Below are positions 1 through 18,888 of a DNA stretch of 64,000 nt, in pieces; position 1 is the first letter of the stretch, and every line of letters starts with the position of its first letter. The position numbers were made by a program, and so were the translations under genes. The DNA lies in the sequence record NC_024794.1; one strand, written 5' to 3'. This DNA is from Escherichia phage vB_EcoM_PhAPEC2. The notes below the pieces were generated by a model that saw nothing but the letters and a program-made list of their open reading frames with translations, made no database searches and was not told the origin of the DNA.

Positions 1-943
1 TTTCACGAAGTTTAGAAATAGGGCCGTCATATTTCAGTTTACCAACGTTCAATTCAAATTCTGAAATGTAATCCAGAGAATAGGACGGTTGATTGGTAAA
101 AGAGAATTTTTTGTAAAGGTCAATGTAATCAAGAACAGAGATACCGAACAATGTAATGATTTCACGAGAACCATACATGTTTTCGATAACTTTAACACGA
201 GTTTTACGATGAGGTGATAAACGTTTCGCAGTAGATTCGCCAAAAATATTCTTGATTCGGTTATACACATATGGAATATCAAATGACTCAACGTTCCATC
301 CAGTCAAAATGACAGGAGTTTTCTGTTGCCAGAAGTTGAGATATTCCATCAATAATTCTTTTTCATTATCAAACGGCATATAAACGATTTTGTCGATAAT
401 TTCGGATGGAACTTCATCACCACCTTGTTCTTGAAGCTTAGCCGCAATTTCGATAGACCATTCTTCTACATTACCATATGGAGAATTCAATAGATCAAAT
501 ACGTAGAACCTGTCGTCAATTGAGTCATAATGGGTGATAGCATCAATAGGATGTTTTGCTTGTGACGGCTCAGGGAACCCGTCCGGAGATGTTACTTCGA
601 TGTCGAAGTTAGCCACACGAATTTTTGTATGGTCGTATTTGATTTCATAGTTATAAGTGTCAGACAAATACGCCAATTTAAAATCGTCCATGCCAAGTGC
701 TTCAAGTCCGATATCTTCCATGCGTTTAATCCATTGGGAGGCATCACGCATATTAGCGAACAACTTACGAGCACACGGTTTACCGTAGATATCGAAATAT
801 TTCGTAGCCTGACTTTCTGGACAATGAGCAAACAGTGATGGTTTATATTCTACTTCACGAGTACGTTCACGGCCATTAGAATCGATGTAACGTTCAAAAA
901 TTGAATCACCAATCTGTTCAACCGTTAAGTAAAATTCTTTCAT
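1..943 (-). CDS. 43: DNA polymerase gp43, N-terminal part (exonuclease region); gene continues beyond window start
   Basis: Open minus-strand frame running off position 1; ATG at 943 with AGGAAA SD; translation MKEFYLTVEQIGDSIFERYIDSNG... with exo motif FDIEV, as in T4-family B polymerases (RB69-like by recollection). Confidence 0.93.
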   Translation of the reverse strand, partial: MKEFYLTVEQIGDSIFERYIDSNGRERTREVEYKPSLFAHCPESQATKYFDIYGKPCARKLFANMRDASQWIKRMEDIGLEALGMDDFKLAYLSDTYNYEIKYDHTKIRVANFDIEVTSPDGFPEPSQAKHPIDAITHYDSIDDRFYVFDLLNSPYGNVEEWSIEIAAKLQEQGGDEVPSEIIDKIVYMPFDNEKELLMEYLNFWQQKTPVILTGWNVESFDIPYVYNRIKNIFGESTAKRLSPHRKTRVKVIENMYGSREIITLFGISVLDYIDLYKKFSFTNQPSYSLDYISEFELNVGKLKYDGPISKLRE

Positions 944-955
944 TTAATTTCCTTT

Positions 956-971
956 AGACGAGTTATTGTCT
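956..971 (-). promoter_or_regulatory. 5'UTR hairpin upstream of gene 43 SD (4-bp stem, 8-nt loop AAUAACUC); candidate gp43 autogenous translational operator
   Basis: Minus-strand AGAC-AATAACTC-GTCT immediately 5' of SD/ATG; T4 gp43 is known to bind a hairpin operator in its own mRNA. Confidence 0.35.
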
Positions 972-1004
972 TTTGTTTGTTGATGAACTTATTATACTCC
1001 AAAT

Positions 1005-1018
1005 GGGACCGAAGTCCC
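1005..1018 (-). terminator. GGGAC-UUCG-GUCCC tetraloop stem-loop between regA and gene 43
   Basis: Perfect 5-bp stem with UUCG loop on the minus transcript just 3' of the regA stop; no U-run, so more likely an RNA stability/processing hairpin than a strong terminator. Confidence 0.4.
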
Positions 1019-1024
1019 ATTGCT

Positions 1025-1393
1025 TTAATTACCAATTGTATATTTTGCTTTCAAAGTCCAGTCATCTTTCTGTTTAAAAGAGATAACTCGGAAGTTATTA
1101 GTCAGGCTAAATAGATCTTCACGAGCAGAGTCTTCAATAACAATCAATCCCCAGTCTTCAAGCAACTGAGCAATCGAATCACGCCGCTGATAGTCTTCAC
1201 CATCAATATCAACTTGTCGTCCGTCCATACGCAGCATTTCTTTAAAGTGGACGATATAGTACTTACCTTGCTTTTGGAGGATATGACAAGACTGGTAAAG
1301 GACTTTATCCTTGTTATTAGCGATGCCCATACGGGTCAGAGTCTCTTTGACTTTCAGAAAATCTTCAGGGTTCTTCAATTTAATTTCAATCAT
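1025..1393 (-). CDS. regA: RegA translational repressor
   Basis: 122 aa, MIEIKLKNPEDFLKVKETLTRMGIANNKDKVLYQSCHILQKQGKYYIVHF...; synteny 43-regA-62-44-45; start ATG 1393 chosen over upstream ATG 1402. Confidence 0.9.
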   Translation of the reverse strand: MIEIKLKNPEDFLKVKETLTRMGIANNKDKVLYQSCHILQKQGKYYIVHFKEMLRMDGRQVDIDGEDYQRRDSIAQLLEDWGLIVIEDSAREDLFSLTNNFRVISFKQKDDWTLKAKYTIGN

Positions 1394-1395
1394 TT

Positions 1396-1959
1396 TTACC
1401 ATTCCAATGCTAATTTTTTAAATTGTTTTTGTTCTTTCACATTTTTTGTAACTTCTTTGAGAAATTCATCAGTGACCATGGCCTTCAGTTCTTTAAGGAC
1501 TATTGGCAACTTGTTATTTTTTTCAAGGAGCCGCTTATACTCGGTAGCATCATTCATGTTGATTGTGTAACGTTTCATCAACAGTTTGATAACTAGTAAC
1601 TCTGAAGTGTCTTCGACTAGTTTAGCCCATTTAGAGAATCGACGACCACGCGGAATTGCCGCCATCATGTAGTTGAAGTGCGCTTCATCACTTAATTCAG
1701 AACCGACTAAGTTCATCATGTAAACAGCTGGCATACATTCTGGGAACTGGGATAATGAGTTCTCAACCATAAATTTTGAGTAGTCGACCTGAGCAATTGA
1801 CATAGATTTCTTTTCATTAATAGCATTAATGATTTTAAAGAATTCATTCTCAGGTTTTTCTTTAAACATATCAGCACATTTTTGAATCGCATCAGCGTCA
1901 TTAGACTTCCATGCAATTTGGTGCTCGTTAAGTTGGGCGTCATCATCAAATAAGTTCAT
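1396..1959 (-). CDS. 62: Clamp loader small subunit gp62
   Basis: 187 aa; position between regA and 44; stop overlaps regA start region. Confidence 0.88.
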
Positions 1960-1960
1960 A

Positions 1961-2923
1961 TTATTTCCAAGTCAGTTCGCAGGTCAGTTGAAGAAGCATA
2001 TACATAACATGTAATTCAATATTACTAGCTAGTCCATGAAACTTATTATTTTCGCCTGCAATTTCGTAAAGCGAAATAATACTTTTACCAGGTGCAACTT
2101 GGTCATAACATTCTGAAACTAATTTATCGATGAACCATGAATAATCTGCAGCATATTTTGGAGCTAATGCACGAAGCTGTTTGATATCTTTGTTCTTCAT
2201 TGCTTCGATAACATCAGAGACTGTGCCACGGTCATTAGTTACGATAGACAGAATACCTGCATCAAGAACACCTTTAGACGAGTACTGGTCTAATTGTCCA
2301 ATTGTACGACGAAAGTCCGGGAAGTTCTTTTTAACCAGAGCTGCAACAACTTTCATATCAGCGATTTCGATATTTTCATTCTTACAGATTTCAACCATAC
2401 GATGAATCATTTTCTTCATCATCGAGATTTTATCTTCTTCGGTTGGACGTCCGAATTCGATAACTCGACAACGACTACGTAATGGTTCAATAATTCCATC
2501 GATGTTGTTGGCAGTAATAATAATAGAACAGTTACTAGAGAATTCTTCCATAAACGTACGAAGGTGACGTTGTGATTCGGCGAGGCCACTACGGTCAAAT
2601 TCATCAATAACAATAACTTTCGGCTTGCCTTCCATTGAGACTGAACGAGCGAATGCAGTTAACGGACCACGCACAAAATCAATCTTACAATCAGAACCGT
2701 TGACGAACATCATTTCGGCATTGATATCATTACATAATGCTTTTGCTACAGTTGTTTTACCTGTGCCGGGAGAAGGAGAGTGCAAAATAATATGAGGAAG
2801 TTTTCCTTTAGATACTAAAGACTTGAATGTTTCATGGTCATACGCAGGCAGAATACATTCGTCAATGGAAGAAGGACGATATTTCTGTTCTAGAATGTGC
2901 TCTTTGGAATTGATAGTAATCAT
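1961..2923 (-). CDS. 44: Clamp loader ATPase subunit gp44
   Basis: 320 aa; Walker [11 protein letters not shown], Walker [12 protein letters not shown] motif (LRSRCRV) typical of RFC-like clamp loaders. Confidence 0.93.
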
Positions 2924-2998
2924 GTAATTTTCCTCATTATCATTAAACTGGAGGATTTCTCCTCCATAATCGTACTACATTAAACGTAAAGCTTTGAC

Positions 2999-3685
2999 TT
3001 AGAAGTCGTGAGTAGAATCGGCTTCCATCGCAATAACATAACTCACTTGAGAGCTTTCAAACTTGGCTGCAACTTTATCACCAGCTCCCCACAACATTAC
3101 TTTATAGTTACCTGGCTGAATTTTCATATTAGCCATATTGATTACGAAGTTAAAGTTGTTAGAACCATCATAATCGGTAAGAGTCAAAGAATACTTAGGA
3201 CGAGTCAAGCCAGAATCTTCAACTTTATTGTAACCGTTGATAACAATTTTACCATCTTTATTTGTAATAGCAATTGTATCAATCTGAAGGCCACGTGAAA
3301 CTCGAAGCAATTGTTGAAGGTCTTCAGCTTTAATTTCAGTAATCACAGAAGCCACTGGGAATTGAATTGGCTTATTAGGAAAAACAATGGTGCTCTTGTC
3401 AGCGGCAGGCCAATAAACTGTGGAACGTGTATCTGCAATTTTAATATTGCCATCAGTGTGCATTGAAATTTCAGCATCATCAGACACTAGACTCAAAATG
3501 CTTAAGAAGCTATTCAAATCATAAAGTGCTACGTCAAAATCAATTTCATCAGAGATATTTGCTTCCGCATAAGTGGTGCCATTAACTGCACGAGTCATAA
3601 TAAATTTACCTTGACTCAGCAGAATGCCGGAGTTAATAGAGGCAAAGTTTTTCAGAATAGCGATAGTATCTTTAGACAGTTTCAT
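2999..3685 (-). CDS. 45: Sliding clamp gp45
   Basis: 228 aa from ATG 3685 (SD AAAGGAAAT); MKLSKDTIAILKNFASINSG... ends ...EADSTHDF as in T4 gp45. Confidence 0.93.
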   Translation of the reverse strand: MKLSKDTIAILKNFASINSGILLSQGKFIMTRAVNGTTYAEANISDEIDFDVALYDLNSFLSILSLVSDDAEISMHTDGNIKIADTRSTVYWPAADKSTIVFPNKPIQFPVASVITEIKAEDLQQLLRVSRGLQIDTIAITNKDGKIVINGYNKVEDSGLTRPKYSLTLTDYDGSNNFNFVINMANMKIQPGNYKVMLWGAGDKVAAKFESSQVSYVIAMEADSTHDF

Positions 3686-3727
3686 TTTATTTCCTTTCAA
3701 GACAATTCAAAGTTTATAACAAATTTA

Positions 3728-4144
3728 TTATGCAGCAACCATCTGCTTTTTAATAGCTTCAGGCAGTGATTCAATATATTCTGGAATTTTAGAAGCAACA
3801 ATTTCGCCAGCTGCAATTAGTTGTTCGTCGGCATCAACACAATAGAAATCTTCCAGACGCTCAGAACCGTCTTTATCAAGAACGATTTTAGCACCTGCTT
3901 CAATAGAATCTTTATAGTGCTTACGCATCAGATGAATCCACATATCAGATACATCATTATCAATAAAACCATAAATCATAAAACGAGTTTCTTGTGGCAA
4001 AGATTGGAGTTTTTTAGCACTTGCGTCATCACAATGCAGGACCCATGCTTTACGAACACGATTATGGTTATGTGGGTTAGCGTCAGTACGGATAGAAGTA
4101 ACTTTCAGATCAGCAGCAGTGAAACCTTTAGCAGTAGTAAACAT
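3728..4144 (-). CDS. rpbA: RNA polymerase-binding protein RpbA-like (by synteny)
   Basis: 138-aa ORF directly downstream of gene 45 in T4 order 45-rpbA-45.2-46. Confidence 0.55.
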   Translation of the reverse strand: MFTTAKGFTAADLKVTSIRTDANPHNHNRVRKAWVLHCDDASAKKLQSLPQETRFMIYGFIDNDVSDMWIHLMRKHYKDSIEAGAKIVLDKDGSERLEDFYCVDADEQLIAAGEIVASKIPEYIESLPEAIKKQMVAA

Positions 4145-4156
4145 ATTATTTCTCTC

Positions 4157-4357
4157 TTATTCGTAGAAGTCGGTAACTGTCCATGCGGAATTGCGATTAG
4201 ACATTATTTTATTATACTCATCTTTAAAAGCAGATTTGAGCATTTGTTCAGTAACAATATGTTCTTCACCTGAAAACGTATTGGTCAAAACATATTTTTT
4301 AATTTCAGGGACAACAAGAAGATGTTGGCCGGTTGAATACTCCATGTTGTTCTCCAT
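4157..4357 (-). CDS. Hypothetical small protein (T4 45.2 position)
   Basis: 66-aa ORF between rpbA and 46. Confidence 0.45.
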   Translation of the reverse strand: MENNMEYSTGQHLLVVPEIKKYVLTNTFSGEEHIVTEQMLKSAFKDEYNKIMSNRNSAWTVTDFYE

Positions 4358-4399
4358 TTAATTTGATGTGGTCATTATAACCACATCATGTTAAAGCGT

Positions 4400-6088
4400 T
4401 TATGAAACAGTCATTACCGTAAATCGTCCAACTTTGCTCATCTGAAGATGTTGTCCATAACGTTGAGGGTCATGGTCTCGATGAGAGATAATGAACACGT
4501 TAGTATTTTGTAAACTTCCAAGAATGGTATCTATAGCCTTAACAGCTTCAGAATCTACAGCGCCGTCAAAAACCTCATCAAGAATCAACGTGTTGATTTT
4601 AACACCGGAGACCTTTTCAGCAATATCTCGCCATGTAAACAACAATGCGATATCGATACGTGCCTTTTCACCTTGACTAAATGAAGCATAACTAAAATCT
4701 TCACGACCACGTGATTTTATAGATTCATTGAATTCTTCGTCAATAGAAAACACGTAATCAGCTTCCATGATTTTAAGATAATAGTTAATCTGCTTGTTGA
4801 ACAGAGGCACGTATTTTTTAATGATAGCACCTTTAATACCAGAATCTTTTAACATATCTGTGATAATACCACGATGGTATTTTTCAAGAACGATATCTGA
4901 TTTTGTTTTAATGATTTTATCAAGTTCTTTTTGAAGCAAAGCTATTTCATCGGCATGGTCGATAAATTCCGCCGAGGCTTGTTCTATTGCAGCTTTAACT
5001 TTCTTAGCTTTATCAATAGTGGCAATCATTGCTTGTTTCTTGGTACGAATATCAGATGCAAGGTCCTGTTTAGTCTTAACATTAGCTCTATATTCGTCCA
5101 CTAGGACACTCAGATTATCTCTGTGACAGGTAAGTTGCTCGAATGAGTGATTACATTCATGAAGCTTATCGGTAATCTTAGAGACAATAGGATCACCCTG
5201 GTGCAACTGTGATGCACAAGTAGGACATGTACCGCCATCATGATACATCTTAATAACTTTGTTATATGAGTCAATTTTAGATTTAATCAAGAATGCTTCT
5301 TGTCCTATCTTGTTGAATGCCTCGGTAGGGTCTTCATCAAGAACGATATTAAGTAGTCGCTCATTAGCTTCTTCGATTTCTGCTTTTAATGAACGAGCTT
5401 CTTTGGCTAGGTCGTCATACATATTCTGTAGACGAGCTACATTATCACCAGATAATTTCTTTTGACGTTCGATATTCTCGTTATAAATCTTAATTTGTTG
5501 GATAACACCATCTTTCTTAGCATCGAGAACTTGTCCCTGGGAATTAAGTTCTCGAACTTGAGACTTATTGATTTTATCCATTTCAGCGAGTGTGCCGACT
5601 TCTAAAAGGTCTTCGACAAGTTTTCTACGAGCAGGGGTGCTAAGAGCCATGAAAGGGGTATACCCTGCCGTCCCAAGCACAACGATTTGTTTAAAAGACG
5701 CATATGACATTCCGATGCTACGTTCAAATTCTTCTTGGAAGTCACGACTGCTGGCAGATTCATCGAGACGAACACCGTCAACGGAGATTTCGAAAATATT
5801 GGGCTTTTGTCCACGTCTAATGAAGTATTTTTTATCATCGAATTCCATCCAAAGCTCAACTAAGAGCTCTTTCTTGTTCGTGCTATTAATGATTTGTCCT
5901 TTCTTAACATCACGAAATGGTTTACCGAAAAGTCCGAAAGTAATGGCTTCTAACATCGTAGATTTACCACCGCCATTTTTACCAGTGATTAATGTCTTTT
6001 GGACTTTATCTAATTGGATATCAATAGGATTCCCACCTACCGACATGATGTTTTGATAACGAACACGATTTAATTTAAATGATTTCAT
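4400..6088 (-). CDS. 46: Recombination endonuclease subunit gp46 (Rad50/SbcC-like ATPase)
   Basis: 562 aa; N-terminal Walker A GKNGGGKST, long coiled-coil middle, C-terminal signature/Walker B (LILDEVFDG). Confidence 0.93.
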   Translation of the reverse strand: MKSFKLNRVRYQNIMSVGGNPIDIQLDKVQKTLITGKNGGGKSTMLEAITFGLFGKPFRDVKKGQIINSTNKKELLVELWMEFDDKKYFIRRGQKPNIFEISVDGVRLDESASSRDFQEEFERSIGMSYASFKQIVVLGTAGYTPFMALSTPARRKLVEDLLEVGTLAEMDKINKSQVRELNSQGQVLDAKKDGVIQQIKIYNENIERQKKLSGDNVARLQNMYDDLAKEARSLKAEIEEANERLLNIVLDEDPTEAFNKIGQEAFLIKSKIDSYNKVIKMYHDGGTCPTCASQLHQGDPIVSKITDKLHECNHSFEQLTCHRDNLSVLVDEYRANVKTKQDLASDIRTKKQAMIATIDKAKKVKAAIEQASAEFIDHADEIALLQKELDKIIKTKSDIVLEKYHRGIITDMLKDSGIKGAIIKKYVPLFNKQINYYLKIMEADYVFSIDEEFNESIKSRGREDFSYASFSQGEKARIDIALLFTWRDIAEKVSGVKINTLILDEVFDGAVDSEAVKAIDTILGSLQNTNVFIISHRDHDPQRYGQHLQMSKVGRFTVMTVS

Positions 6089-6324
6089 ATGTATTCTCTT
6101 CGAATGAAGTCCTCTACATATTTTAACATGTCATCTCTATCAGCAAAATATTCATCCAGTTCTGCATACATAACAACACCTGGCGCGTACTCACAGGTAA
6201 CATACATTGTTCCAAAGAAACGAGGAGTTGATTCCTCGTAATTCTCGGTCCATTCAACGATACCAATATAACCGTCACCAATACTAAATTCATGACGATG
6301 GATTTCATAATCAGTCTTCGTCAT
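6085..6324 (-). CDS. Hypothetical protein (T4 46.1 position)
   Basis: ORF coupled to gene 46; start ATG 6324 has GAGGA SD (track start 6339 overlaps it). Confidence 0.5.
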   Translation of the reverse strand: MTKTDYEIHRHEFSIGDGYIGIVEWTENYEESTPRFFGTMYVTCEYAPGVVMYAELDEYFADRDDMLKYVEDFIRREYI

Positions 6325-6568
6325 TATATGCATCCTCAATACACGCTTCAGCCATTTTAAGAATAGAGCCAGGAGTATCGTTGTCCATTATATTAAAGCT
6401 AAATTCAATAGCCCAGTCGGTGCAGACATGAACTGCTTTAACTTCATTGCCTTCAACGCGTAATGGCTCAATCCAATACTTGATAGTGTTCTCGAATCCA
6501 TCATCATCTTTAACGTCCATTTCAACTTCAAGCCTGAGTCCAGCATTGTTAAATTCATCTAAAGTCAT
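6311..6568 (-). CDS. Hypothetical acidic protein (T4 46.2 position)
   Basis: 85-aa ORF, stop/start coupled to gene 47. Confidence 0.5.
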   Translation of the reverse strand: MTLDEFNNAGLRLEVEMDVKDDDGFENTIKYWIEPLRVEGNEVKAVHVCTDWAIEFSFNIMDNDTPGSILKMAEACIEDAYNDED

Positions 6569-7584
6569 TGTGTTGCCTCAATATAAAGTTCGTTGGAATA
6601 TTTGACCAGCGCTTCTCTGTCTTCGTCTGAGATATCTGGAATCGCGTCAATATATTCTTTAATGATATCTTGAAGTGATTTAATCTCGATTTCCTGGTCA
6701 TCATCAGATTCAACACTGTTATCAACTTTAGAAACCATACGAAGAGAGTGAACTACTTTTTCAAGTTCAGATTCAAACTTAGTCAACTCTGAATCAATTT
6801 CTGATACTATAACACGTACGGCTAGATTAGTATAATCAGAATAATTGATTTTGCCTTTAAACGGATAAGTGATTCGTCGATGCCATGTTGTTTCATTAGG
6901 AATAAATTCCATACGTTCAACATCAGTGTCAAATACCCAGAATCCGCGCGGGTCGTTCTCATCACCTGCAGTAAGGGTCCATGGTGTCCCAATATATTTG
7001 ACGTTAGCAGCTTCAGAGATTGTGTGGAAGTGGCCGGACCAGACTTGTTTATAGGTCTTTAAGAAATCAGGTTCAAGCCCATGAGACTTCATTCCTTTAT
7101 AGAAATAAAAACCATTCAGTTCCCAGTGCCCAACACAATACGCGGCAGAAGAAGTCTTGATGTGCTCTAAGATTTCACCTGTATTTTCTTCACACATCCA
7201 TGGAACGATATCAATCAGACATCCGTCAAAATCTACAGTAGTTGGATGCTCGTAAATAGTAAAGTTTTCAAATTGAGTTAACAATTCAGAAACAGTGTTA
7301 GGTGTTATTGTATTCTTAAACGCCATGTCATGGTTTCCTATCGTGACATGAACGTGAATGCCTGCTTTAGAAATCATATCAACGATTTCACGATTGAATT
7401 CCATTGTACGATGTGTTATTGCTTTACGGACGTCAAACCAATCACCGTACTGAATCCAAGTTTTAATCCCGTGTTTCTTAGAGTATTCAATTGCTTGACG
7501 AATACCATCACGTTGAATATCTTGAACCCACGGGTCGTCTTGTTTGACTCCGATATGGAAGTCGCCTAAGTGCAAAATTTTCAT
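6565..7584 (-). CDS. 47: Recombination endonuclease subunit gp47 (Mre11/SbcD-like phosphoesterase)
   Basis: 339 aa; calcineurin-like phosphoesterase motifs (HLGDFH, GNHD, GHWH). Confidence 0.93.
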   Translation of the reverse strand: MKILHLGDFHIGVKQDDPWVQDIQRDGIRQAIEYSKKHGIKTWIQYGDWFDVRKAITHRTMEFNREIVDMISKAGIHVHVTIGNHDMAFKNTITPNTVSELLTQFENFTIYEHPTTVDFDGCLIDIVPWMCEENTGEILEHIKTSSAAYCVGHWELNGFYFYKGMKSHGLEPDFLKTYKQVWSGHFHTISEAANVKYIGTPWTLTAGDENDPRGFWVFDTDVERMEFIPNETTWHRRITYPFKGKINYSDYTNLAVRVIVSEIDSELTKFESELEKVVHSLRMVSKVDNSVESDDDQEIEIKSLQDIIKEYIDAIPDISDEDREALVKYSNELYIEATQ

Positions 7585-7628
7585 ATTATTTCCTCATTAG
7601 TTAATTCATTCTATCATCCGTTTATAAA

Positions 7629-7656
7629 GCAAAAAAGGAACTCCGAAGAGTTCCTA
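7629..7656 (-). terminator. Rho-independent terminator (UUCG-loop hairpin + U-run) upstream of gene 47
   Basis: Minus transcript GGAACUC-UUCG-GAGUUCC followed by UUUUUUG. Confidence 0.6.
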
Positions 7657-7827
7657 TCCACATAGTACACCGTACAGAGGCTCATTTGAACTTTTAAATC
7701 GAATGGGCTTGTATGTAATAGTTCCTTCGGCTTTAGCTTTATCATAAGACTCTTTAAAACGTCTCATTCTTTCTGCTTTGCCTTTACGGATTTTATCGAA
7801 ATTTTCAGAGGTCAGGTCATTCGTCAT
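7654..7827 (-). CDS. Hypothetical small protein (57 aa)
   Basis: Hand-translated MTNDLTSENFDKIRKGKAERMRRFKESYDKAKAEGTITYKPIRFKSSNEPLYGVLCG; below ORF-track cutoff; stop overlaps terminator hairpin. Confidence 0.3.
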   Translation of the reverse strand: MTNDLTSENFDKIRKGKAERMRRFKESYDKAKAEGTITYKPIRFKSSNEPLYGVLCG

Positions 7828-7866
7828 GCATAATCACCTCTCAGAAAATACCTAAATCGATTTCTC

Positions 7867-8073
7867 TCATCGTTTCCACCATTTCTTAACTTGAAATGAA
7901 TCGACCCACACGAGTTGTTTTGGGTCTGCCTTTACAATAGGCGGACAAATTTCTGTAATAGAACTGTCGTGATATTCCTTTTCAGAAATTTTAACACAAA
8001 GAGGACCTCCCAATTTAAGGGTGAACCCTGCGTTCAGCTTCAGACGTTTAAACTTTGTTTGAACTAGCGCCAT
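7867..8073 (-). CDS. Hypothetical protein
   Basis: ORF with ATG at 8073 (MALVQTKFKRL...); overlaps end of upstream ORF, start uncertain. Confidence 0.3.
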   Translation of the reverse strand: MALVQTKFKRLKLNAGFTLKLGGPLCVKISEKEYHDSSITEICPPIVKADPKQLVWVDSFQVKKWWKR

Positions 8074-8371
8074 TAATGATGTCCTCAATAGCCTGACGAG
8101 TAGTAACCCACTGGATTTTAATTAACTTGTCATTATATGGTTGTCGTAGAATATCCCGAGATTTCTTAATAGCATATTCGTAAGCTTCGAAGTTGTTTTG
8201 AATTGCTGCTTCTTGAGCATGAGCATAAAGACGGTTTAGTTCAAAACGATTCTTTTTAAGAATCTTTTCGGATTTTTTACGTGCTTCAGCTTCATTTTTC
8301 TTTTGGATTTCTTGTAGCATTTTAGCTACTGCATCTTCTGCTTCTTTATTTTCAATAATCTCGGTAGTCAT
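8048..8371 (-). CDS. Hypothetical protein (107 aa)
   Basis: ORF between 47 and 55, in the interval where T4 carries a-gt. Confidence 0.45.
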   Translation of the reverse strand: MTTEIIENKEAEDAVAKMLQEIQKKNEAEARKKSEKILKKNRFELNRLYAHAQEAAIQNNFEAYEYAIKKSRDILRQPYNDKLIKIQWVTTRQAIEDIINGASSNKV

Positions 8372-8372
8372 A

Positions 8373-8588
8373 TTATCTCATTAAATTAAAATAAAAACGT
8401 CCATCCTCTTCAATACAGAACTCATACTCAACCGGAGTCCCATTTATCGAAAATGACACGTCATGTGGGTTCAAAGGGTCGATGTCAAAATTAATTTTAA
8501 ATTCACGACCCAACAGTTTTACCAAATAAGGGATTGCTTCGTCAAAAGGTTCTTCTAAGTAGTTAGAGATGTCAATTGTCATCCTCAT
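8373..8588 (-). CDS. Hypothetical protein (start uncertain)
   Basis: ORF overlapping 3' end of gene 55; plausible ATGs at 8588/8582. Confidence 0.4.
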
Positions 8589-9129
8589 ATAAAAAATCCA
8601 AACTAGGCGAATCGCTAACAACTTCCTTCTTTTCAGCCCCAGGAGCTTTATAAGCGGATTCTTCATAATGCGTCATTTTATCGTAGATGTCTTGAATAAA
8701 CGTTTCATCTACCAACGCTACCATATCATCGTCATGACTGTCGTAGACATTATGAACGAAGTAACTATATTTCTTTGCAACTTCCTTACGTTCTTTTTTG
8801 ATACGTTGGACAAAAGCATTAAAACAAGCTCGAGTTATGTATGCATGTGGGTTATTGTACTTAGTTTCGTCGAAATTATGAAGTCCCTTAATAGAGGCTT
8901 CAATCCCATCTGCAATCATCTCCTGCTTCCAAGACTGGGTATATCCTGAAAAGTTGAAACGTTTGGACAGGCCTTCGGCGATAAGCATAATTGCTAAACC
9001 GATGGTATCATTCTGACGAATAATTTTGTTTGGGTCTTTATTATTTAAGAGCTCCTTTTTCCACTCGATTATAGCGGCGAGAAGCTCTTTATTATTCACA
9101 TAGTTATTTTTAGGTTTTTGTTCGGTCAT
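8572..9129 (-). CDS. 55: Late-transcription sigma factor gp55
   Basis: 185 aa from ATG 9129: [27 protein letters not shown]...[35 protein letters not shown]... near-identical to T4 gp55 as recalled; track start 9147 is a TTG extension. Confidence 0.93.
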
Positions 9130-9284
9130 AAGTATCTCTTGGCTCAATTCATAGGTCTATTATATCATAATATTTAGAGACCTATCTTAAAGCACGAGAT
9201 ACTATCAAAGATACGTAACTTTTATAAAGTTGTCGACTTAAAATTCACCAAACTTTTCTTCGGATATAGTGATTCGAGATAGTT

Positions 9285-9512
9285 TCATTTTAGTTCCTTT
9301 GCTGCTTCAAGAGCAGCATCCAGCGAATCAAATTGGTCAACGAAATCAATATTCAACGCATCGTCAACCGTAGCATATAACCACCATTGTTTGAATTCAT
9401 ATTCTAGGATAAATCCAGGCCCTTCAATCTGAGGAAGACCTAGGCTATTTGTACCAACTTCGTAACCAGCTAGACGCAAGTCATTAATCAAAGTTTCTGT
9501 TAATACGCTCAT
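9285..9512 (-). CDS. Hypothetical acidic protein (T4 55.x position)
   Basis: 75-aa ORF, ATG verified at 9512, coupled (ATGA) to upstream gene. Confidence 0.5.
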   Translation of the reverse strand: MSVLTETLINDLRLAGYEVGTNSLGLPQIEGPGFILEYEFKQWWLYATVDDALNIDFVDQFDSLDAALEAAKELK

Positions 9513-9841
9513 TTTACCGCCTTAACAATTTTCAGGTCAACGAATTTTTTCTTACGTTGATTTTTCATACGACGGATAGTCTTTTCAGAGATTTCATGTT
9601 TCTGATAAGCTTTAGATTCAACACCAAATGCAGCAACGTCAAATTCAGAAAGAATATATTGTACTAGAATTTCACGAATAGAATTACGTCCAATTTTCTG
9701 GTCGTGTTTTTGCATGATTTCATAAAGACGGAATTCCCACGCGTCAAGAACTTGAGGAGTAACAATATTGCCGGATTCCAGAAGAGCAACAACTTTATCG
9801 AAAGCGAAAGAATTAACTACGTTTTTGATTTTAGTAGACAT
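9509..9841 (-). CDS. Hypothetical protein (T4 55.x position)
   Basis: 110 aa from ATG 9841 (MSTKIKN..., SD GAGGAAAA); first gene after the early promoter at 9879-9907. Confidence 0.55.
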   Translation of the reverse strand: MSTKIKNVVNSFAFDKVVALLESGNIVTPQVLDAWEFRLYEIMQKHDQKIGRNSIREILVQYILSEFDVAAFGVESKAYQKHEISEKTIRRMKNQRKKKFVDLKIVKAVK

Positions 9842-9878
9842 ATTATTTTCCTCGGTTATTTTATTATCCAATGAGAGC

Positions 9879-9907
9879 ATTATACTCTGCTCTCAAGAGT
9901 TTGTAAA
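9879..9907 (-). promoter_or_regulatory. T4-type early (sigma70) promoter, TTTACA-N17-TATAAT
   Basis: Minus strand TTTACAAACTCTTGAGAGCAGAGTATAAT; the 48-bp block is duplicated exactly at 38995-39042. Confidence 0.6.
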
Positions 9908-9910
9908 TCG

Positions 9911-10111
9911 TTATCCGAACTTTTTAGCGCCTTTCCAGCCTTCGTACATAACTGCACAAGTCAGTAGTACAGCGTGCTGGCATTCTTTGTATTTGTAAAT
10001 CCAGAACCAGCGTAAGAAGTCTTCGTCCTCAACACCGTTGAGTTTCATGTTCGCGAAGAATTCAGCTCGTTCTTCGCGAAGTTTTTGAGATAACATAGAT
10101 TCAGGATTCAT
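9911..10111 (-). CDS. Hypothetical protein
   Basis: 66-aa ORF, ATG verified at 10111. Confidence 0.45.
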   Translation of the reverse strand: MNPESMLSQKLREERAEFFANMKLNGVEDEDFLRWFWIYKYKECQHAVLLTCAVMYEGWKGAKKFG

Positions 10112-10242
10112 TTTATATTCCAGACCCCATTTTCATCGATGAACTTAATCCAGTCATTTACAGACCATTTAGTTGTATCACCCTTTGGATTAACATTTAA
10201 AGTATATAATCCCTGCTTAAAAAGCATTCGTTTGATATTCAT
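10108..10242 (-). CDS. Hypothetical small protein (44 aa)
   Basis: ATG 10242 with SD GAGGAAATT; ATGA-coupled to downstream ORF. Confidence 0.35.
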   Translation of the reverse strand: MNIKRMLFKQGLYTLNVNPKGDTTKWSVNDWIKFIDENGVWNIK

Positions 10243-10249
10243 AATTTCC

Positions 10250-10543
10250 TCAACTGTAACGATAACATTCGTTAGCTTTACGTTTGGCTTCAGTATGAGA
10301 AGTATTATAATCATACTCTTCTTTACTGTAAACATCCTTTTTCAACTTACGAACTTCTTTGCGGAGTTGTCGATTCATTTCATTCTTGACTTCAGAATCA
10401 ACGCCTTTCGTACGTTTCCATTTATCTGAGCGGAAAATGTTTTCAACCATGTCTTTGTGGCTAACACCGTCAGGAGCTTTACGCTTACCAAAATAGTCGT
10501 AATCACGAACTTTCAAATCTTTACGACGATATGTTTTACCCAT
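10250..10543 (-). CDS. Hypothetical highly basic protein
   Basis: 97 aa from ATG 10543 (MGKTYRRKDLKVRDYDYFGKRK...), K/R-rich. Confidence 0.45.
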   Translation of the reverse strand: MGKTYRRKDLKVRDYDYFGKRKAPDGVSHKDMVENIFRSDKWKRTKGVDSEVKNEMNRQLRKEVRKLKKDVYSKEEYDYNTSHTEAKRKANECYRYS

Positions 10544-10550
10544 AAGTACC

Positions 10551-10799
10551 TCAGAGGTTGATTGATACAACACGTTTGATAAAATTCACTTCACTTACTG
10601 AAAGGTCTTTAAGACCGATTGATTCTAAACGCTGAGTAAGCGTCAACATCGGGATATAATCCCATTGGGTTTTATTTGCTTGATAAGTACGAACGCCATT
10701 AGCAATTTCAACATGCAAATCGGAAATGGTAACGAATACCGGTCGCTCGTCATTAACTTTAAGGGTTAGAACAACTTTCTTTGAATCTAAACTAATCAT
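10551..10799 (-). CDS. Hypothetical protein
   Basis: 82-aa ORF, ATG verified 10799, ATGA-coupled. Confidence 0.5.
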   Translation of the reverse strand: MISLDSKKVVLTLKVNDERPVFVTISDLHVEIANGVRTYQANKTQWDYIPMLTLTQRLESIGLKDLSVSEVNFIKRVVSINL

Positions 10800-10978
10800 G
10801 GCTTAATTTCCTTCGCAATTGAACAGAAGATACCACGGTCACAAAGCATTTCGCCAATTTCTGGATATTTGATTGAACGGTACCAAACATCCAGGCTTGA
10901 AACTCTGGTTATCTGTACTGCATTACCGTTGACAGAATAGTACTGGTCAACCTTAATTTCTTTATCTTCAATTGTCAT
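10796..10978 (-). CDS. Hypothetical protein
   Basis: 60 aa from ATG 10978 (MTIEDKEIKVDQYYSVNG..., SD GAGGAAAA). Confidence 0.45.
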   Translation of the reverse strand: MTIEDKEIKVDQYYSVNGNAVQITRVSSLDVWYRSIKYPEIGEMLCDRGIFCSIAKEIKP

Positions 10979-11143
10979 TTTATTTTCCTCTATAGTAGAT
11001 GGTTTAATCTTAACACATCTATTGAGGATGTAAACTGTTTTATGAAAATATTTTCGATTTGAGAGGGGCACAAGGAGATAGTGAAGTGAAGATTCCAATG
11101 GATTATATTAGAAATGAGATAAAGAAGACCAGGCGGCACCTGG

Positions 11144-11437
11144 TCAATCTTCTATGATATCAGAGTCATATCCTAATGAAATCAAGGACTTTTTAAACTC
11201 TGCAATATTCTTTTGTTTCTTATCATTTAAAAATATGACAGGATAACGAATATTAAGTGAAGTGAATCCTGCACGTTTAGCAAGAGATACGATTAAAGGA
11301 CGGTCATATTCAATCTTACCATTATTAGTGAGGACTTTATAAAATGTATAAGGAGCATTGAGCTCCTTTAAAAGTTTTGTAACAGTATAACATCCTGGAC
11401 AACGTCCAACTTCTTCAGGGATGCCATAGATTTCAAT
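11144..11437 (-). CDS. Glutaredoxin/thioredoxin-like protein (CPGC motif); start codon unresolved
   Basis: Frame encodes ...IEIYGIPEEVGRCPGCYTVTKLLKEL... but has no in-frame ATG after the stop of the upstream ORF; possible ATT start, coupling or frameshift. Confidence 0.45.
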   Translation of the reverse strand: MEIYGIPEEVGRCPGCYTVTKLLKELNAPYTFYKVLTNNGKIEYDRPLIVSLAKRAGFTSLNIRYPVIFLNDKKQKNIAEFKKSLISLGYDSDIIED

Positions 11438-11750
11438 CTTGTTCTTTAAGTTCGAGTTTTGTTCCACGAGAAATAATTCCTTGGTAAGCCCAATAAGGAG
11501 GATTAACAGAATCCTCACCAGAGTTTTCTTCAGGAAAATAAACCTGGATAACGAAGCCGGATTCATCAAAGGTAAAATAAACCGTAGGCAGTTCACCTAA
11601 CAAATCGGCACGAGCGTTGATTTCTTCGAGGTCTTGTTCACGTCCAGCCCAGAAGCTTGGGTTCAGACTACATTCATAGAAATAATAGTCATTACCGAAC
11701 ATATCAAAACCATTCCAACTCTCTACTACATACCGCTCAAAACTAATCAT
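11433..11750 (-). CDS. Hypothetical acidic protein
   Basis: 105-aa ORF, ATG verified at 11750. Confidence 0.5.
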   Translation of the reverse strand: MISFERYVVESWNGFDMFGNDYYFYECSLNPSFWAGREQDLEEINARADLLGELPTVYFTFDESGFVIQVYFPEENSGEDSVNPPYWAYQGIISRGTKLELKEQD

Positions 11751-11752
11751 AA

Positions 11753-11968
11753 TTAAGCCTTTTTATCAAGAACAGAATTCAGTTTATTAGTAATTTTGTC
11801 CAAACGTTCATTGAATTCGCTGGAGGATAAACCCTTTTCTGGAGAAATTAAACTAATCACGAAAAATACACCAGTAAAAGGAATAAGAAAAATAGCTCCA
11901 ACTGCCATAAACAAAAAGAACGTTACAGTTGTAAGAAAATCAGCTAAACCTTTACGAAATTTGTACAT
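11753..11968 (-). CDS. Hypothetical small membrane protein
   Basis: 71 aa with central hydrophobic segment (FFLFMAVGAIFLIPFTGVFFVISLI). Confidence 0.5.
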   Translation of the reverse strand: MYKFRKGLADFLTTVTFFLFMAVGAIFLIPFTGVFFVISLISPEKGLSSSEFNERLDKITNKLNSVLDKKA

Positions 11969-12078
11969 ATTTACCCTTAATTAACTAAGCATTGATAATC
12001 ATTAAACTATATTGCGAATAAAATTCTGGACCAAAACGAAAAATCATATCATTTATAGTATCCATAATGTAATTCAAT

Positions 12079-12549
12079 TTAATCATGTTTCCACACCCCA
12101 TCGGTATTTGACCAAAGTCGCTGATTATCTGATCCTCGCCACAGTTTTTTGGTCGGAAGATTTTTCTCATACTTCCCATCAATAATAACATCAACATATT
12201 TAAGCATTTCTAGTTGTTTAATATCTTCAAACTTATATCCTGTCCACAACCAAATGCTTTTATTGGGATAAAGATTTTTTACTGTTTGAGCAATGCAATG
12301 AATAACATCTCGGTTATCAGGATAGAGAGGGTCACCTCCGGTTATAGTTAATCCTTCTATATAATCATTATTCAAACATTCAATTAATTGTTCTAGTGTT
12401 TCACCAGTGAATGGAGCACCATTTCTAGCATTCCATGTTGATTTATTATAACACCCTTCGCATTTATGCAAACAACCTGTAACGAAAAGAACGACCCTGC
12501 AACCAGGGCCATTCACAAAATCGCAAGGGTAAAATCTATCATAATTCAT
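12079..12549 (-). CDS. nrdG: Anaerobic ribonucleotide reductase activating protein NrdG (radical SAM)
   Basis: 156 aa; CxxxCxxC cluster motif (CLHKCEGC); coupled to nrdD. Confidence 0.9.
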   Translation of the reverse strand: MNYDRFYPCDFVNGPGCRVVLFVTGCLHKCEGCYNKSTWNARNGAPFTGETLEQLIECLNNDYIEGLTITGGDPLYPDNRDVIHCIAQTVKNLYPNKSIWLWTGYKFEDIKQLEMLKYVDVIIDGKYEKNLPTKKLWRGSDNQRLWSNTDGVWKHD

Positions 12550-14363
12550 TGGTGTTTAACCCTATGCATGATTTCTTTATTTTTACCGAGATTAAATCCG
12601 CGTTCGTTCGGATTTCCAAGATAACCGCATGTTCTTCTTATGGTGTTCATCTTTTTAGGATCAGTTTCTCCACAAACTGAACAAACAAATCCGTTTTCAG
12701 TAGGAGTCATTTCATGGGTACTTCCACATGTAAAACATTTATCTACTGGCATATTAACACCAAAATAATCTAAATGTTGTGCAGCATAATCCCACACGGC
12801 CTCAAGACCTTTTAAATTGTTTTTCATGTCAGGTAATTCAACATAAGAAATGTGACCACCTGTCGCAATGAAATGATATGGCGCTTCACGAGAAATCTTT
12901 TCAAACGGAGTAATATTTTCTTCTACTGAAACATGGAAACTGTTAGTGTACCAGCCTTTATCGGTAACATCTTTTACGCTTCCATATTTTTCTGTGTCGA
13001 GTTTACAGAAACGATAACACAAGTTTTCAGCAGGAGTAGAATATAAACTAAAAGCAAATCCAGTTCTTTCGGTCCACTGTTTAAGATGAGCATTCATTTT
13101 AGTTAAAATTTCTTGTCCAATATCACGGCCAACAAGAATATTCAATTCGTGAATACCAATGTATCCTAGGGACACTGAACTTCTACCGTTTTTAAATAAC
13201 TCAATTATATCGTCATCAGGTTTAAGACGAACCCCGAATGCACCTTCTTGGTAAAGAATAGGAGCAACAGTAGCTTTAACACCCTTTAAAGAACTAATTC
13301 TACACATCAAGGCTTCAAAACACAGATCCATTCGTTCATTAAATAGCTCAACAAATTTCTGTTCATTGAACTGTGTTCCAATATAAGAATCTAATGCGAT
13401 ACGAGGAAGATTCAGTGTTACAACGCCAAGATTATTACGACCGTCAAGAATTTCATTTCCAGTTGAATCTTTCCATACGCTCAAGAAACTACGACAACCC
13501 ATTGGAGAAACAGGAACAGATGAACCAGTGATAGCTTTATTATTCTTAACCGAAATAATGTCAGGATACATTCTTTTGCTTGCACATTCTAATGCAAGTT
13601 GTTTAATATCATAGTTCGGATCATCTTTATAAAGATTAACACCTTCTTCAACAAACATAACAAGTTTAGGAAAAATAGGAGTTATTCCATCACGACCAAG
13701 ACCTTTAATGCGGTTTTTAAGAATTGCCTTCTGAATCATTCGTTCAGTCCAGTCAGTTCCTGTACCAAATGTAATTGTCACAAAAGGCGTTTGTCCGTTT
13801 GAACTAAAGAGAGTATTTACTTCATACTCATAAGCTTGAAATGCGTCATAGACATCTTTTTCTGTTTTGGATTGAGCATAATTCAACGCATCAGCGATTT
13901 GCCATTTTTCTGCATCCTCAATATGTTTTGCATAGGTGCGTTTAACATAAGGAGAAAGAACTTTATCGACATTCGCAAATGTAGTTCCGCCATACTGGTG
14001 AGAAGCAACTTGTGCAGTAATTTGTGCCATAATTGCAGTAGCAACACCAATCGATTTAGGCGTTTCAATTTGAGCATTGCCTAATTTAAATCCATTCTCA
14101 AGCATCCCCTTTAAATCGACTAAACAACAATTGGTAAACGGAAGAGCAGGAGAATAATCAATATCATGCATGTGAATGATTCCGCTTTCATGCGCATGCA
14201 TAATAAAAGACGGGACCATATTTTTGGCAATGTGCTTAGACACAATACCAGCCATAAGGTCCCGTTGAGTTGGAAAAACACGAGAATCTTTATTAGCATT
14301 CTCGTTCAAAAGATCTTTATTAGTTTTATAAATTAATCCTTCAATTTCTTTTTCAATTTTCAT
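12546..14363 (-). CDS. nrdD: Anaerobic ribonucleoside-triphosphate reductase NrdD, uninterrupted
   Basis: 605 aa; C-terminal glycyl-radical motif RRTCGYLG and Zn-ribbon CFTCG...CSVCG; contiguous ORF, no intron. Confidence 0.93.
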   Translation of the reverse strand: MKIEKEIEGLIYKTNKDLLNENANKDSRVFPTQRDLMAGIVSKHIAKNMVPSFIMHAHESGIIHMHDIDYSPALPFTNCCLVDLKGMLENGFKLGNAQIETPKSIGVATAIMAQITAQVASHQYGGTTFANVDKVLSPYVKRTYAKHIEDAEKWQIADALNYAQSKTEKDVYDAFQAYEYEVNTLFSSNGQTPFVTITFGTGTDWTERMIQKAILKNRIKGLGRDGITPIFPKLVMFVEEGVNLYKDDPNYDIKQLALECASKRMYPDIISVKNNKAITGSSVPVSPMGCRSFLSVWKDSTGNEILDGRNNLGVVTLNLPRIALDSYIGTQFNEQKFVELFNERMDLCFEALMCRISSLKGVKATVAPILYQEGAFGVRLKPDDDIIELFKNGRSSVSLGYIGIHELNILVGRDIGQEILTKMNAHLKQWTERTGFAFSLYSTPAENLCYRFCKLDTEKYGSVKDVTDKGWYTNSFHVSVEENITPFEKISREAPYHFIATGGHISYVELPDMKNNLKGLEAVWDYAAQHLDYFGVNMPVDKCFTCGSTHEMTPTENGFVCSVCGETDPKKMNTIRRTCGYLGNPNERGFNLGKNKEIMHRVKHQ

Positions 14364-14833
14364 TTTAAACTCTTTCTAAGCTGCTTTTTGAATGAAGCTA
14401 TTAATTGTGTTTTAGTGTCAGATTCATTATATTTAAATCCTCTTTGAAGCATCTCAGTCATCATTTCCTCTTTACCTAGTCTTGAGAACTCTTTAGTTTT
14501 GTCTGGAACAAAATTAGGATGGATATTATTATCAGAATAATCTTGTTTCAAATAAGCAAGAAGAGCTTCAAGCCATTCTAGGTAGTCGACATCACGGCCT
14601 TTAAGACCAGAACGGTTGAACTTATGCTTCATTTGGCCTTCTGCTGCGTTGCACAGATTACAGAGTAATCCACGAACTCTACCTGCTTTTGGCCCGTTTA
14701 ATTCGTGGTCGTGGTCAAGATGGTTACCTTGAACATCAGGGTCTAATTCACGGTGGCAAATAGGACACTTACCGTTCTGTGCATCATAAAATTTTTGTTT
14801 TTCTTCTTTATATTTTGAGCCTGATAATAACAT
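14360..14833 (-). CDS. 49: Endonuclease VII (Holliday junction resolvase) gp49
   Basis: 157 aa; ...GKCPICHRELDPDVQGNHLDHDHELNGPKAGRVRGLLCNLCNAAEG... as in T4 endo VII. Confidence 0.92.
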   Translation of the reverse strand: MLLSGSKYKEEKQKFYDAQNGKCPICHRELDPDVQGNHLDHDHELNGPKAGRVRGLLCNLCNAAEGQMKHKFNRSGLKGRDVDYLEWLEALLAYLKQDYSDNNIHPNFVPDKTKEFSRLGKEEMMTEMLQRGFKYNESDTKTQLIASFKKQLRKSLK

Positions 14834-14838
14834 GATAA

Positions 14839-14871
14839 ACCCTTACCTTAAATAGATAAGGGTATTTATTA
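14839..14871 (-). promoter_or_regulatory. Gene 49 regulatory hairpin sequestering the SD, with late-promoter-like AATAAATA just upstream
   Basis: Minus ACCCTTA-(11 nt)-TAAGGGT stem covering the AAGGG SD; AATAAATA (7/8 to TATAAATA) at 14864-14871; T4 gene 49 is known to use this early-hairpin/late-promoter arrangement. Confidence 0.4.
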
Positions 14872-15282
14872 ACTTAAACGTCTTTCTAAATATTCAATGT
14901 ATTCTGCGGCTGCTTGCATCAGGTTACCTTCATAGCCGTCGTTATTTTCTTGTCCGGCTAATTTAGCTAATGCATAAGAAATTCGTTCACCTTCGAATTC
15001 ACCAAGTCCACCATCACAAACTACTTGGTCAATTTCTTCGAGTTCATCTATTGAATGGGATTCCCAGAAGCACCAAAGAGAAGTATCACGGTCATAGATG
15101 CAAAGTTTCTCACCTGTGTTCAACATCACTTCGATAATGCCATGGCCGCCATAACCATCTTCAGTAGTAGTACCAATTACCTTGATGATCGTATCTTTCT
15201 TTAATTCAGGAAACTTGAATTGTAGTTCTTCATCTTCTTTAACAATCTTGAACCATTTACCGCGAGTTTCAGAAATATTCAT
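14869..15282 (-). CDS. Hypothetical protein (T4 pin/49.x position)
   Basis: 138 aa from ATG 15282 (MNISETRGKWFKIVKEDEELQ...). Confidence 0.45.
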   Translation of the reverse strand: MNISETRGKWFKIVKEDEELQFKFPELKKDTIIKVIGTTTEDGYGGHGIIEVMLNTGEKLCIYDRDTSLWCFWESHSIDELEEIDQVVCDGGLGEFEGERISYALAKLAGQENNDGYEGNLMQAAAEYIEYLERRLS

Positions 15283-15283
15283 A

Positions 15284-15454
15284 TCAATATTCTCTATAAA
15301 AGTTACGATGAGAACGTTTAGCTTTGCGAAGCTGTCGTTTAGTAGGACGAACTGTAAATGGTTGTCCGGAGAAAAAATTCGGATCGGTTTTAATAAGCAA
15401 ATACCAATCATGTTTGCCGTTTTTTAATAAACGGTACAATAATTTAACTTGCAT
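15284..15454 (-). CDS. Hypothetical small basic protein
   Basis: 56 aa from ATG 15454 (MQVKLLYRLLKNGKHDWYLL...). Confidence 0.35.
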   Translation of the reverse strand: MQVKLLYRLLKNGKHDWYLLIKTDPNFFSGQPFTVRPTKRQLRKAKRSHRNFYREY

Positions 15455-15503
15455 AATAATCTCTTCCCATTTCCATATCAATTAATTCATTTATTGAAGG
15501 TTC

Positions 15504-15533
15504 ATCATAACATGGTTCTTCGTCGTTGTAAAC
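15504..15533 (-). promoter_or_regulatory. Candidate early promoter TTTACA-N17-TATGAT
   Basis: Minus GTTTACAACGACGAAGAACCATGTTATGAT. Confidence 0.35.
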
Positions 15534-15582
15534 TGTTTCGACGTCTGGCTCGACAGTCTCCCATCGAGCAGAATACCACGGT

Positions 15583-15918
15583 TTAACCCCGGAGTTTATT
15601 GAGCTCTTCATAATCAATCCAGGATTCTAGCCCTGACGGCAGGTCACATTCAATGTTCCACAGAAGCTCTTCAATGGCTTGCAGGCGATTATATTCTTCA
15701 ACAGTAATAGTAACCATTGTTTCAGGCTTTTTAACCATCATGTCATTCATCAGAATGTACAGGTCTTCACAAACAGCCGGGTCGTCCCATGTCCATATTT
15801 CAGCATCTCGAACCAATGAAGTCGGAATCGAATTTAAAACTTCAAGCTTAGTAGGAGCGTCAGGACCGAGAAGAGTTGCTACAAATTTATATGCTTTGGT
15901 GAAATCAATATTGTTCAT
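15583..15918 (-). CDS. Hypothetical acidic protein
   Basis: 111-aa ORF, ATG verified at 15918. Confidence 0.5.
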   Translation of the reverse strand: MNNIDFTKAYKFVATLLGPDAPTKLEVLNSIPTSLVRDAEIWTWDDPAVCEDLYILMNDMMVKKPETMVTITVEEYNRLQAIEELLWNIECDLPSGLESWIDYEELNKLRG

Positions 15919-17840: not shown

Positions 17841-17868
17841 AATATTTTCCTCTCGTTAAGATAGATTC

Positions 17869-17897: not shown

Positions 17898-17902
17898 CCG
17901 TT

Positions 17903-18862: not shown

Positions 18863-18888
18863 TTTATATTCCTCATGTTGAAAAATTT

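Follow-up and report, generated by a model that had tools for sequence, protein, structure and literature searches.

The stretch of DNA analysed here, hereafter the window, comprises 64,000 nucleotides (nt) of Escherichia phage vB_EcoM_PhAPEC2 (NC_024794.1), and the present analysis concerns its interval between gene 47 and gene 55, the position at which phage T4 carries the alpha-glucosyltransferase gene a-gt. In the window this interval was only 987 bp long (7585..8571) and contained four small open reading frames (ORFs) of 57-107 amino acids (aa), all on the minus strand (Table 1). No ORF of ∼400 aa corresponding to a T4-type a-gt (Pfam AGT, PF11440; glycosyltransferase B (GT-B) fold) could be found between a-gt.2 and 47, which are separated by 69 bp only. 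An earlier sequence-only reading of the window, which had reported the absence of a-gt between genes 47 and 55, was thus right on this point. The four small ORFs are homologs of T4 a-gt.2 to a-gt.5. Matches to DUF5486, DUF2654 and DUF5491 had bit scores of 97.3, 96.6 and 49.4, well above the curated cut-offs of these families (27, 25 and 27, respectively), and a-gt.2 gave tblastn matches in 775 phage records. The order of small ORFs between 55 and 47 was identical in the window, T4, RB69, RB27 and the Klebsiella phage Mineola, and the annotations of RB69 and mar005P1 name a-gt.2 to a-gt.5 in the same way. The first 17 nt of a-gt.5 coincide with the end of gene 55, and a-gt.3 and the end of a-gt.4 share 26 nt; such tightly packed or overlapping genes (55, a-gt.5, a-gt.4, a-gt.3 and a-gt.2) would most likely form one transcription unit. 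A literature search on the function of a-gt.2 to a-gt.5 gave only a gene-list mention, and an Rfam scan of 7000..9500 revealed no RNA family.

Table 1 Positions of the features of the window that are discussed in the text
Feature	Position	Strand	Basis
Gene 43 (DNA polymerase), N-terminal 314 codons, cut by the window edge	2..943	-	tblastn with RB69 gp43
Gene 47 (SbcD-like recombination nuclease subunit), 339 aa	6565..7584	-	Pfam Metallophos; 76% identity to T4 gp47; position of RB69p066
Junction in place of T4 47.1/a-gt/mobB: putative composite terminator/middle-promoter (PmSL-like) module, then gene 47 ribosome-binding site	7585..7653	-	blastn breakpoints versus T4
MotA-box-type middle-promoter match, TGCTTTA-N11-TAGAAT, 24 nt upstream of gene 47 ATG	7608..7631	-	Consensus match
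Hairpin AGGAACUC-UUCG-GAGUUCCU, then a six-U run, right after the a-gt.2 stop codon	7636..7655	-	Terminator scan: 8 pairs, UUCG loop, T-run
a-gt.2 homolog, 57 aa	7654..7827	-	DUF5486, E 4.5e-28; 75% identity to T4 a-gt.2
a-gt.3 homolog, 68 aa	7867..8073	-	phrog_1648, E 7e-35; 72% identity to T4 a-gt.3
a-gt.4 homolog, 107 aa	8048..8371	-	DUF2654, E 1e-27; 58% identity to T4 a-gt.4
a-gt.5 homolog, 71 aa from ATG	8373..8588	-	Pfam DUF5491, E 5.8e-13; 47% identity to T4 a-gt.5
Gene 55 (late sigma factor), 185 aa	8572..9129	-	89% identity to T4 gp55; position of RB69p071
RB69ORF132c homolog, 228 aa, predicted 2-oxoglutarate (2OG)/Fe(II)-dependent dioxygenase	33881..34567	-	Predicted fold
RB69ORF134c homolog, 318 aa, predicted Pol-beta-fold nucleotidyltransferase (DUF7277) plus helical C-terminal domain (DUF7275)	34945..35901	-	Predicted fold

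The phage could be assigned by comparison with RB69 (NC_004928), whose position 32408 corresponds to window position 1. The two sequences were colinear over window positions 1..48966 with 94-98% nucleotide identity, the end at 48966 being set by the RB69 sequence compared (1..82000), and identity over 1..9206 was 97.8%. Only four segments of the window (170, 355, 629 and 520 bp) had no colinear RB69 match. The available part of gp43 (residues 1-314) was 99.4% identical to RB69 gp43 by tblastn, so the description of this polymerase as RB69-like in the sequence-only reading was correct. A megablast search with window positions 6000..10000 matched 754 phage records, 159 of which had at least 90% identity to the query; 150 covered at least 80% of it in one place. 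The best matches were all Mosigvirus isolates (98.1-98.6%), and a further relative, mogra, was 98.5% identical to the window across 47-55. Both nucleotide identity and colinearity with RB69 place the phage in the genus Mosigvirus. We are confident that it is a Mosigvirus, that is, an RB69-like T-even phage, and that its 47-55 interval is the standard layout of this genus, in which an arabinose pathway is used instead of a-gt.

Canonical glucosyltransferases were also absent from the rest of the sequences searched. With T4 a-gt, b-gt, 47.1 and mobB as tblastn queries, no significant match was obtained in the 64-kb window (best E 0.029) and no match in the complete 167,560-bp RB69 genome; for T4-type b-gt (PF09198), nothing fell below E = 2 in the window or at E ≤ 1 in complete RB69. 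The a-gt match with E 0.029 falls in e.5 and was judged to be a chance match because e.5 is also present in T4. T4 gp42, RB69p003 and RB69p045-p055 as tblastn queries gave nothing in the window either, and the RB69 counterpart of gene 42 was only 25% identical to T4 gp42. It had been stated previously that no glycosyltransferase-sized gene occurs elsewhere in the window, which is inaccurate as to size: six ORFs of 316-333 aa are present (nrdC.3, nrdC.5, nrdC.6, nrdC.10, nrdC.11 and the ORF134c-like gene), the five nrdC ones being common to T4, and none of the six is a detectable glycosyltransferase. A Pfam scan of the glycosyltransferase-sized unassigned ORFs in the window detected no transferase family. 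In the positive controls, T4 a-gt was matched by AGT at E 3e-260 and T4 b-gt was recognized too. The same database gave no match at E ≤ 1 for RB69p003 (2520..3620) or for the 299-aa mogra homolog of RB69p046:47 (8165..9064, segment coordinates). Thus, Pfam misses real Mosigvirus arabinosyltransferases and its negative result is weak evidence; for this reason, predicted folds were used for the two RB69-like-specific ORFs of Table 1 and T4 homology for the remaining ORFs. It should be noted that profile-library scans in general would overlook the Mosigvirus class of DNA glycosyltransferase. The window segments without RB69 match (170-629 bp) are too short to hide a transferase. As a separate observation, the nrdC.11 homolog (22364..23353, minus strand) was matched by Pfam RlaP, an RNA repair pathway Pol-beta family (E 1e-12), and represents a second nucleotidyltransferase-type gene in the window.

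The modification used by RB69-like phages has been described in previous studies. Arabinose in RB69 DNA was reported by Thomas et al. (2018), who also suggested ORF003c and ORF052-055 as candidate genes, and were the first to report that RB69 is without a-gt, b-gt and ba-gt homologs (PMC6024577); the lack of a-gt and b-gt homologs is also stated explicitly in PMC13326640. In the latter study, Lee et al. (2026) found mono- and di-arabinosylated 5-hydroxycytosine in RB69 DNA by tandem mass spectrometry and nuclear magnetic resonance, identified RB69 gp48 as a ThyA-like synthase of 5-hydroxydeoxycytidine monophosphate (5hodCMP), and put forward gp46:47 and gp3 as candidate arabinosyltransferases, with gp51, gp52:53 and gp55 (RB69 protein numbers) as candidate enzymes of UDP-arabinofuranose (UDP-Araf) formation (PMC13326640). 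The Durham Collection paper reported the same modification in Mosigvirus NP, with two transferases at the same two locations, and called the earlier hydroxymethyl assignment erroneous (PMC13390438). In RB69 and other Mosigvirus phages, arabinose is ether-linked to 5-hydroxycytosine (PMC13326640, PMC13390438). The arabinosyl-5-hydroxymethylcytosine (arabinosyl-hmC) that the sequence-only reading cited for RB69 therefore stands as far as the sugar is concerned, arabinose being a different one from glucose, but not for the base, which is 5-hydroxycytosine (5hoC) rather than hmC.

The genes for this pathway are located in two places in RB69: RB69p045-p055 at 24047..30598, between uvsX and gene 43, and RB69p003 between rIIA.1 and gene 39. 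By synteny, the main cluster of the window phage would start ∼1.8 kb beyond the left edge of the window, with the second locus ∼29 kb further on; both would be outside the window, in agreement with the tblastn result. Of the earlier proposal that the sugar genes may be here or elsewhere, only the second part is borne out (RB69p045-055, RB69p003), since none was found in the window. In mogra, the polymerase gene is immediately adjoined by genes for arabinose-5-phosphate isomerase, a 561-aa bifunctional kinase/uridylyltransferase, a 128-aa HAD-type phosphatase, a peptidase-like protein, the ThyA-like synthase, a 299-aa transferase and a 182-aa kinase-like protein. Records with a match at ≥95% identity numbered 154 for RB69p003 and 150 for arabinose-5-phosphate isomerase, and these counts match the ∼150-159 Mosigvirus records that share the 47-55 region of the window. 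According to the published work, Mosigvirus phages replace deoxycytidine by 5-hydroxydeoxycytidine through the ThyA-like 5hodCMP synthase, after which one or two arabinofuranosyl groups are transferred from UDP-Araf by two GT-B arabinosyltransferases. With such a pathway, these phages do not need a-gt.

What stands at the site of the missing gene is a short regulatory-type module. Homology to T4 by blastn covered window positions 6327..7586 and 7621..9194, and T4 segment 4451..6702 (2252 bp; segment coordinates) corresponded to only 34 bp of the window (7587..7620), with clean borders. The junction was identical to that of RB69 except for one base of the -10 box (TAGAAT here, TAAAAT in RB69). 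Its hairpin appeared in both the minimum-free-energy and the centroid folds and would be an intrinsic-terminator-like element closing the 55 to a-gt.2 unit. The MotA box and -10 box are followed by a GAGG ribosome-binding site and then by the ATG of gene 47. The pattern TGCTTNA-N11-13-TANNNT occurred 12 times in the window versus 3.6 expected, the junction site being one of the 12. All sequence hallmarks of a PmSL-type motif were found at the junction, that is, a G+C-rich stem-loop and, after it, a Mot box (TGCTT) spaced 11-13 nt from a -10 box; a previous report (PMC4122927) describes such stem-loop/Mot-box composites as places where T4-like genomes undergo modular shuffling. The junction could be aligned with modules of IME281, T4, RB27 and Merlin, and in T4, RB27 and IME281 the MotA box is conserved as well. 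Transcription of the 55 to a-gt.2 unit would end at the UUCG-loop hairpin with its U-run, and the MotA-box middle promoter fused to it would restart transcription into 47, 46.2, 46.1 and 46. Neither the window (7585..7620) nor RB69 has gene 47.1, which in T4 encodes a 46-aa predicted membrane protein and which also occurs in IME281 and RB27 and probably in Merlin; without it, the ribosome-binding site of the module leads straight into gene 47. Another terminator-like hairpin, on the plus strand at 7924..7946 inside a-gt.3 (the non-coding strand), was attributed to chance, as two such sites were seen versus 1.4 expected.

Some of our observations weigh against this picture. For the 86-nt junction as a whole, predicted folding was no more stable than for shuffled sequence (z = -0.97), even though its 8-bp UUCG hairpin stands out clearly, and the terminator and promoter activities are putative ones read from consensus matches. 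The arabinose genes are not visible in the window, and their presence in this phage would follow from that in its relatives. In addition, Mineola (genus Jiaodavirus) carries an a-gt in the same slot (segment 2447..3697, between a-gt.2 and 47), whose 67% aa identity to T4 a-gt is similar to the 71% of gp47, a point that bears on loss in Mosigvirus versus gain in Tequatrovirus.

The sequence-only reading had looked for the sugar-activation or transfer enzymes replacing a-gt among the unassigned ORFs of the window, notably 33881..34567 and 34945..35901, which we consider very improbable. RB69 has both ORFs (ORF132c and ORF134c) whereas T4 has neither, both are enzyme-like with invariant catalytic-type residues, and, since Pfam misses the true RB69 arabinosyltransferases, the two could not be dismissed on a negative Pfam result by itself. 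However, their predicted folds are those of other enzymes. The product of 33881..34567 is modelled as a double-stranded beta-helix with an HxD...H iron triad, as in dioxygenases, and that of 34945..35901 as a nucleotidyltransferase fold with the G-S...DxD motif of the Pol-beta superfamily, its DUF7275 domain having conserved His/Asp residues; neither model has a GT-A, GT-B or sugar-1-phosphate nucleotidyltransferase fold. Searches of PDB sequences with both ORFs gave nothing significant. Family distribution was also different from that of the pathway. The ORF134c family was found in 732 phage records (including Aeromonas 59, Pseudomonas 51, Vibrio 38, Gordonia 25, Streptomyces 21 and the glucosylating Moonvirus Merlin) and the ORF132c family in 471 (including Aeromonas 63, Mycobacterium 33 and Gordonia 22), versus 274 for arabinose-5-phosphate isomerase, whose hosts are Escherichia, Acinetobacter, Shigella, Serratia and the like. 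Thus, the distributions of the two families do not follow the arabinose pathway, and both are widespread in phages without it. Moreover, other genes suffice to explain the published pathway, and no other RB69-divergent window segment is longer than 629 bp. The two genes lie with a 101-aa ORF between them (three minus-strand ORFs, 33881..35901). That they encode uncharacterized modifiers of RNA or tRNA ends, nucleotides or host proteins, possibly with a role in repair or counter-defence and unrelated to the a-gt gap, is conceivable but rather unlikely, and the chance that one of them adds an undetected minor modification to Mosigvirus nucleic acid is remote. In Gordonia phage Toniann, segment 3827..4618 encodes a homolog of the C-terminal domain of ORF134c only, ∼1.2 kb upstream of a tRNA gene cluster, which gives a weak hint of a tRNA-related role of this family; no ORF132c homolog was found in the same 12 kb, and the two families are not adjacent there.

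A different kind of explanation is that a-gt was recently deleted from a T4-type phage in this strain, which would leave hmC DNA unglucosylated or only beta-glucosylated. The borders versus T4 are clean, and the single junction module resembles a fusion of the two modules that flank a-gt in T4. Nevertheless, such an event is hardly credible: ∼150 independent isolates share the interval, the RB69 junction is the same bar one base and the module of Dhakavirus IME281 is nearly the same, and the lack of b-gt in the window and in RB69, as well as the low similarity of the RB69 gene-42 counterpart to T4 gp42, do not fit a T4-type hmC phage. The genus-wide layout with the arabinose pathway leaves the question of how the slot came to differ among genera. 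T4 and RB27 have two hairpin-plus-MotA-box modules, one after a-gt.2 and one after a-gt, and this bracketing suggests that a-gt is a present/absent cassette at a recombination-prone regulatory module. T4 and RB27 show no difference in gp47, gp55 and a-gt.4 (100% identity), whereas their a-gt proteins share only 91% identity and mobB occurs in T4 but not in RB27; this is consistent with exchange of the cassette without its flanks, and the cassette has a history of its own. IME281 has no a-gt in the slot and a single module almost identical to that of the window, followed by 47.1 and 47, and Merlin has no a-gt in the slot and similar modules around an unrelated extra ORF. One version of events, which we regard as a serious but tentative possibility, takes the empty slot as ancestral for T-evens, with an a-gt cassette carrying its own downstream hairpin-promoter module inserted in Tequatrovirus and transferred separately to Jiaodavirus. 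The lack of a-gt in the slot of Mosigvirus, Dhakavirus and Moonvirus, the duplicated modules bracketing the cassette in T4 and RB27 and the separate history of a-gt in these two phages are in its favor. On the other hand, at least two genera (that of T4 and Jiaodavirus) hold a-gt in the slot, the divergence of the Mineola gene parallels that of gp47 as expected from vertical descent, and by gp47 and gp55 identity the window is closer to T4 than to Mineola. The alternative is an ancestral a-gt that disappeared from those lineages in which another modification pathway took its place. With regard to IME281, we also observed that segment 2729..3000, left unannotated between a-gt.4 and the a-gt.2-like gene, contains an a-gt.3 homolog ending in KVWVDSHQLKKWWQR, which appears to have been missed by the record annotation.

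Taken together, the empty a-gt slot is a real and ordinary feature that belongs to the already known layout of RB69-like phages. Since both the absence of a-gt and the arabinose chemistry have been published, no new biology is involved, and the value of the analysis lies in correct classification. The sequence-only reading was partly supported: it was right in outline, outdated on chemistry (the base is 5hoC) and mistaken in the nominated ORFs, which are not sugar genes by the evidence above. Where the a-gt slot is empty and the polymerase is of the RB69 type, the sequence reliably marks a phage with arabinosylated 5hoC rather than glucosyl-hmC. Such information is useful, as arabinosyl-5hoC alters attack by restriction enzymes, type IV systems (GmrSD/BrxU), DNA glycosylases and CRISPR nucleases, and also affects the ease with which phage DNA can be cut, cloned and sequenced.

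Several local differences from RB69 were observed outside the interval. The 629-bp segment without colinear match (30592..31220) marks an internal-protein locus that differs from RB69; the product of the ORF 30671..31249 (minus strand) is an internal virion protein of 192 aa (phrog_5341, E 4e-117) that has an MKTYKEFIAEA-type N-terminus. Upstream of gene 55, in 9206..9905, the offset relative to RB69 changes first by 183 and then by 304 bp, so the phage is without part of the small-ORF content of RB69 around ORF072c and ORF075c. Three tRNA genes (Arg-TCT, Asn-GTT and Met-CAT) were predicted at 42040..42273 on the minus strand, where the RB69 record annotates Arg and Met only.

Compared with known systems, the window is closest to RB69, in which genes 47 to 55 (RB69p066-p071) have the same order (47, a-gt.2, a-gt.3, a-gt.4, a-gt.5, 55) and equal ORF lengths; the two differ in the small indels upstream of gene 55 and in the internal-protein gene, which is present only in the window phage. 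The corresponding interval of T4 (NC_000866, 36448..39599) is 3152 bp long and contains in addition 47.1, a-gt (400 aa) and the homing endonuclease gene mobB, whereas the flanking genes and the a-gt.2 to a-gt.5 quartet (47-75% aa identity) are shared. The T4 module after a-gt.2 is of the same type as that of the window, and T4 has, unlike the window, a second copy after a-gt. The junction also resembles the PeSL/PmSL motifs (Arbiol 2010, PMC2839356; PMC4122927), in which, as here, a stem-loop is directly followed by a promoter at the border of a cassette varying among related phages; among these kinds its promoter is of the Mot-box type. The cases described in the available text of these reports are RB49/phi1, PST/T4 and nt-1/KVP40, a set to which the window junction, known here from sequence alone, does not belong. 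Finally, the Mosigvirus phages with arabinosyl-5-hydroxycytosine (RB69 with RB69p003 and p045-p055, HY126 with its Afh genes, NP, Bas46 and Bas47) belong to the same genus as the window phage, whose ∼98% identical relatives carry the full arabinose cluster next to gene 43.

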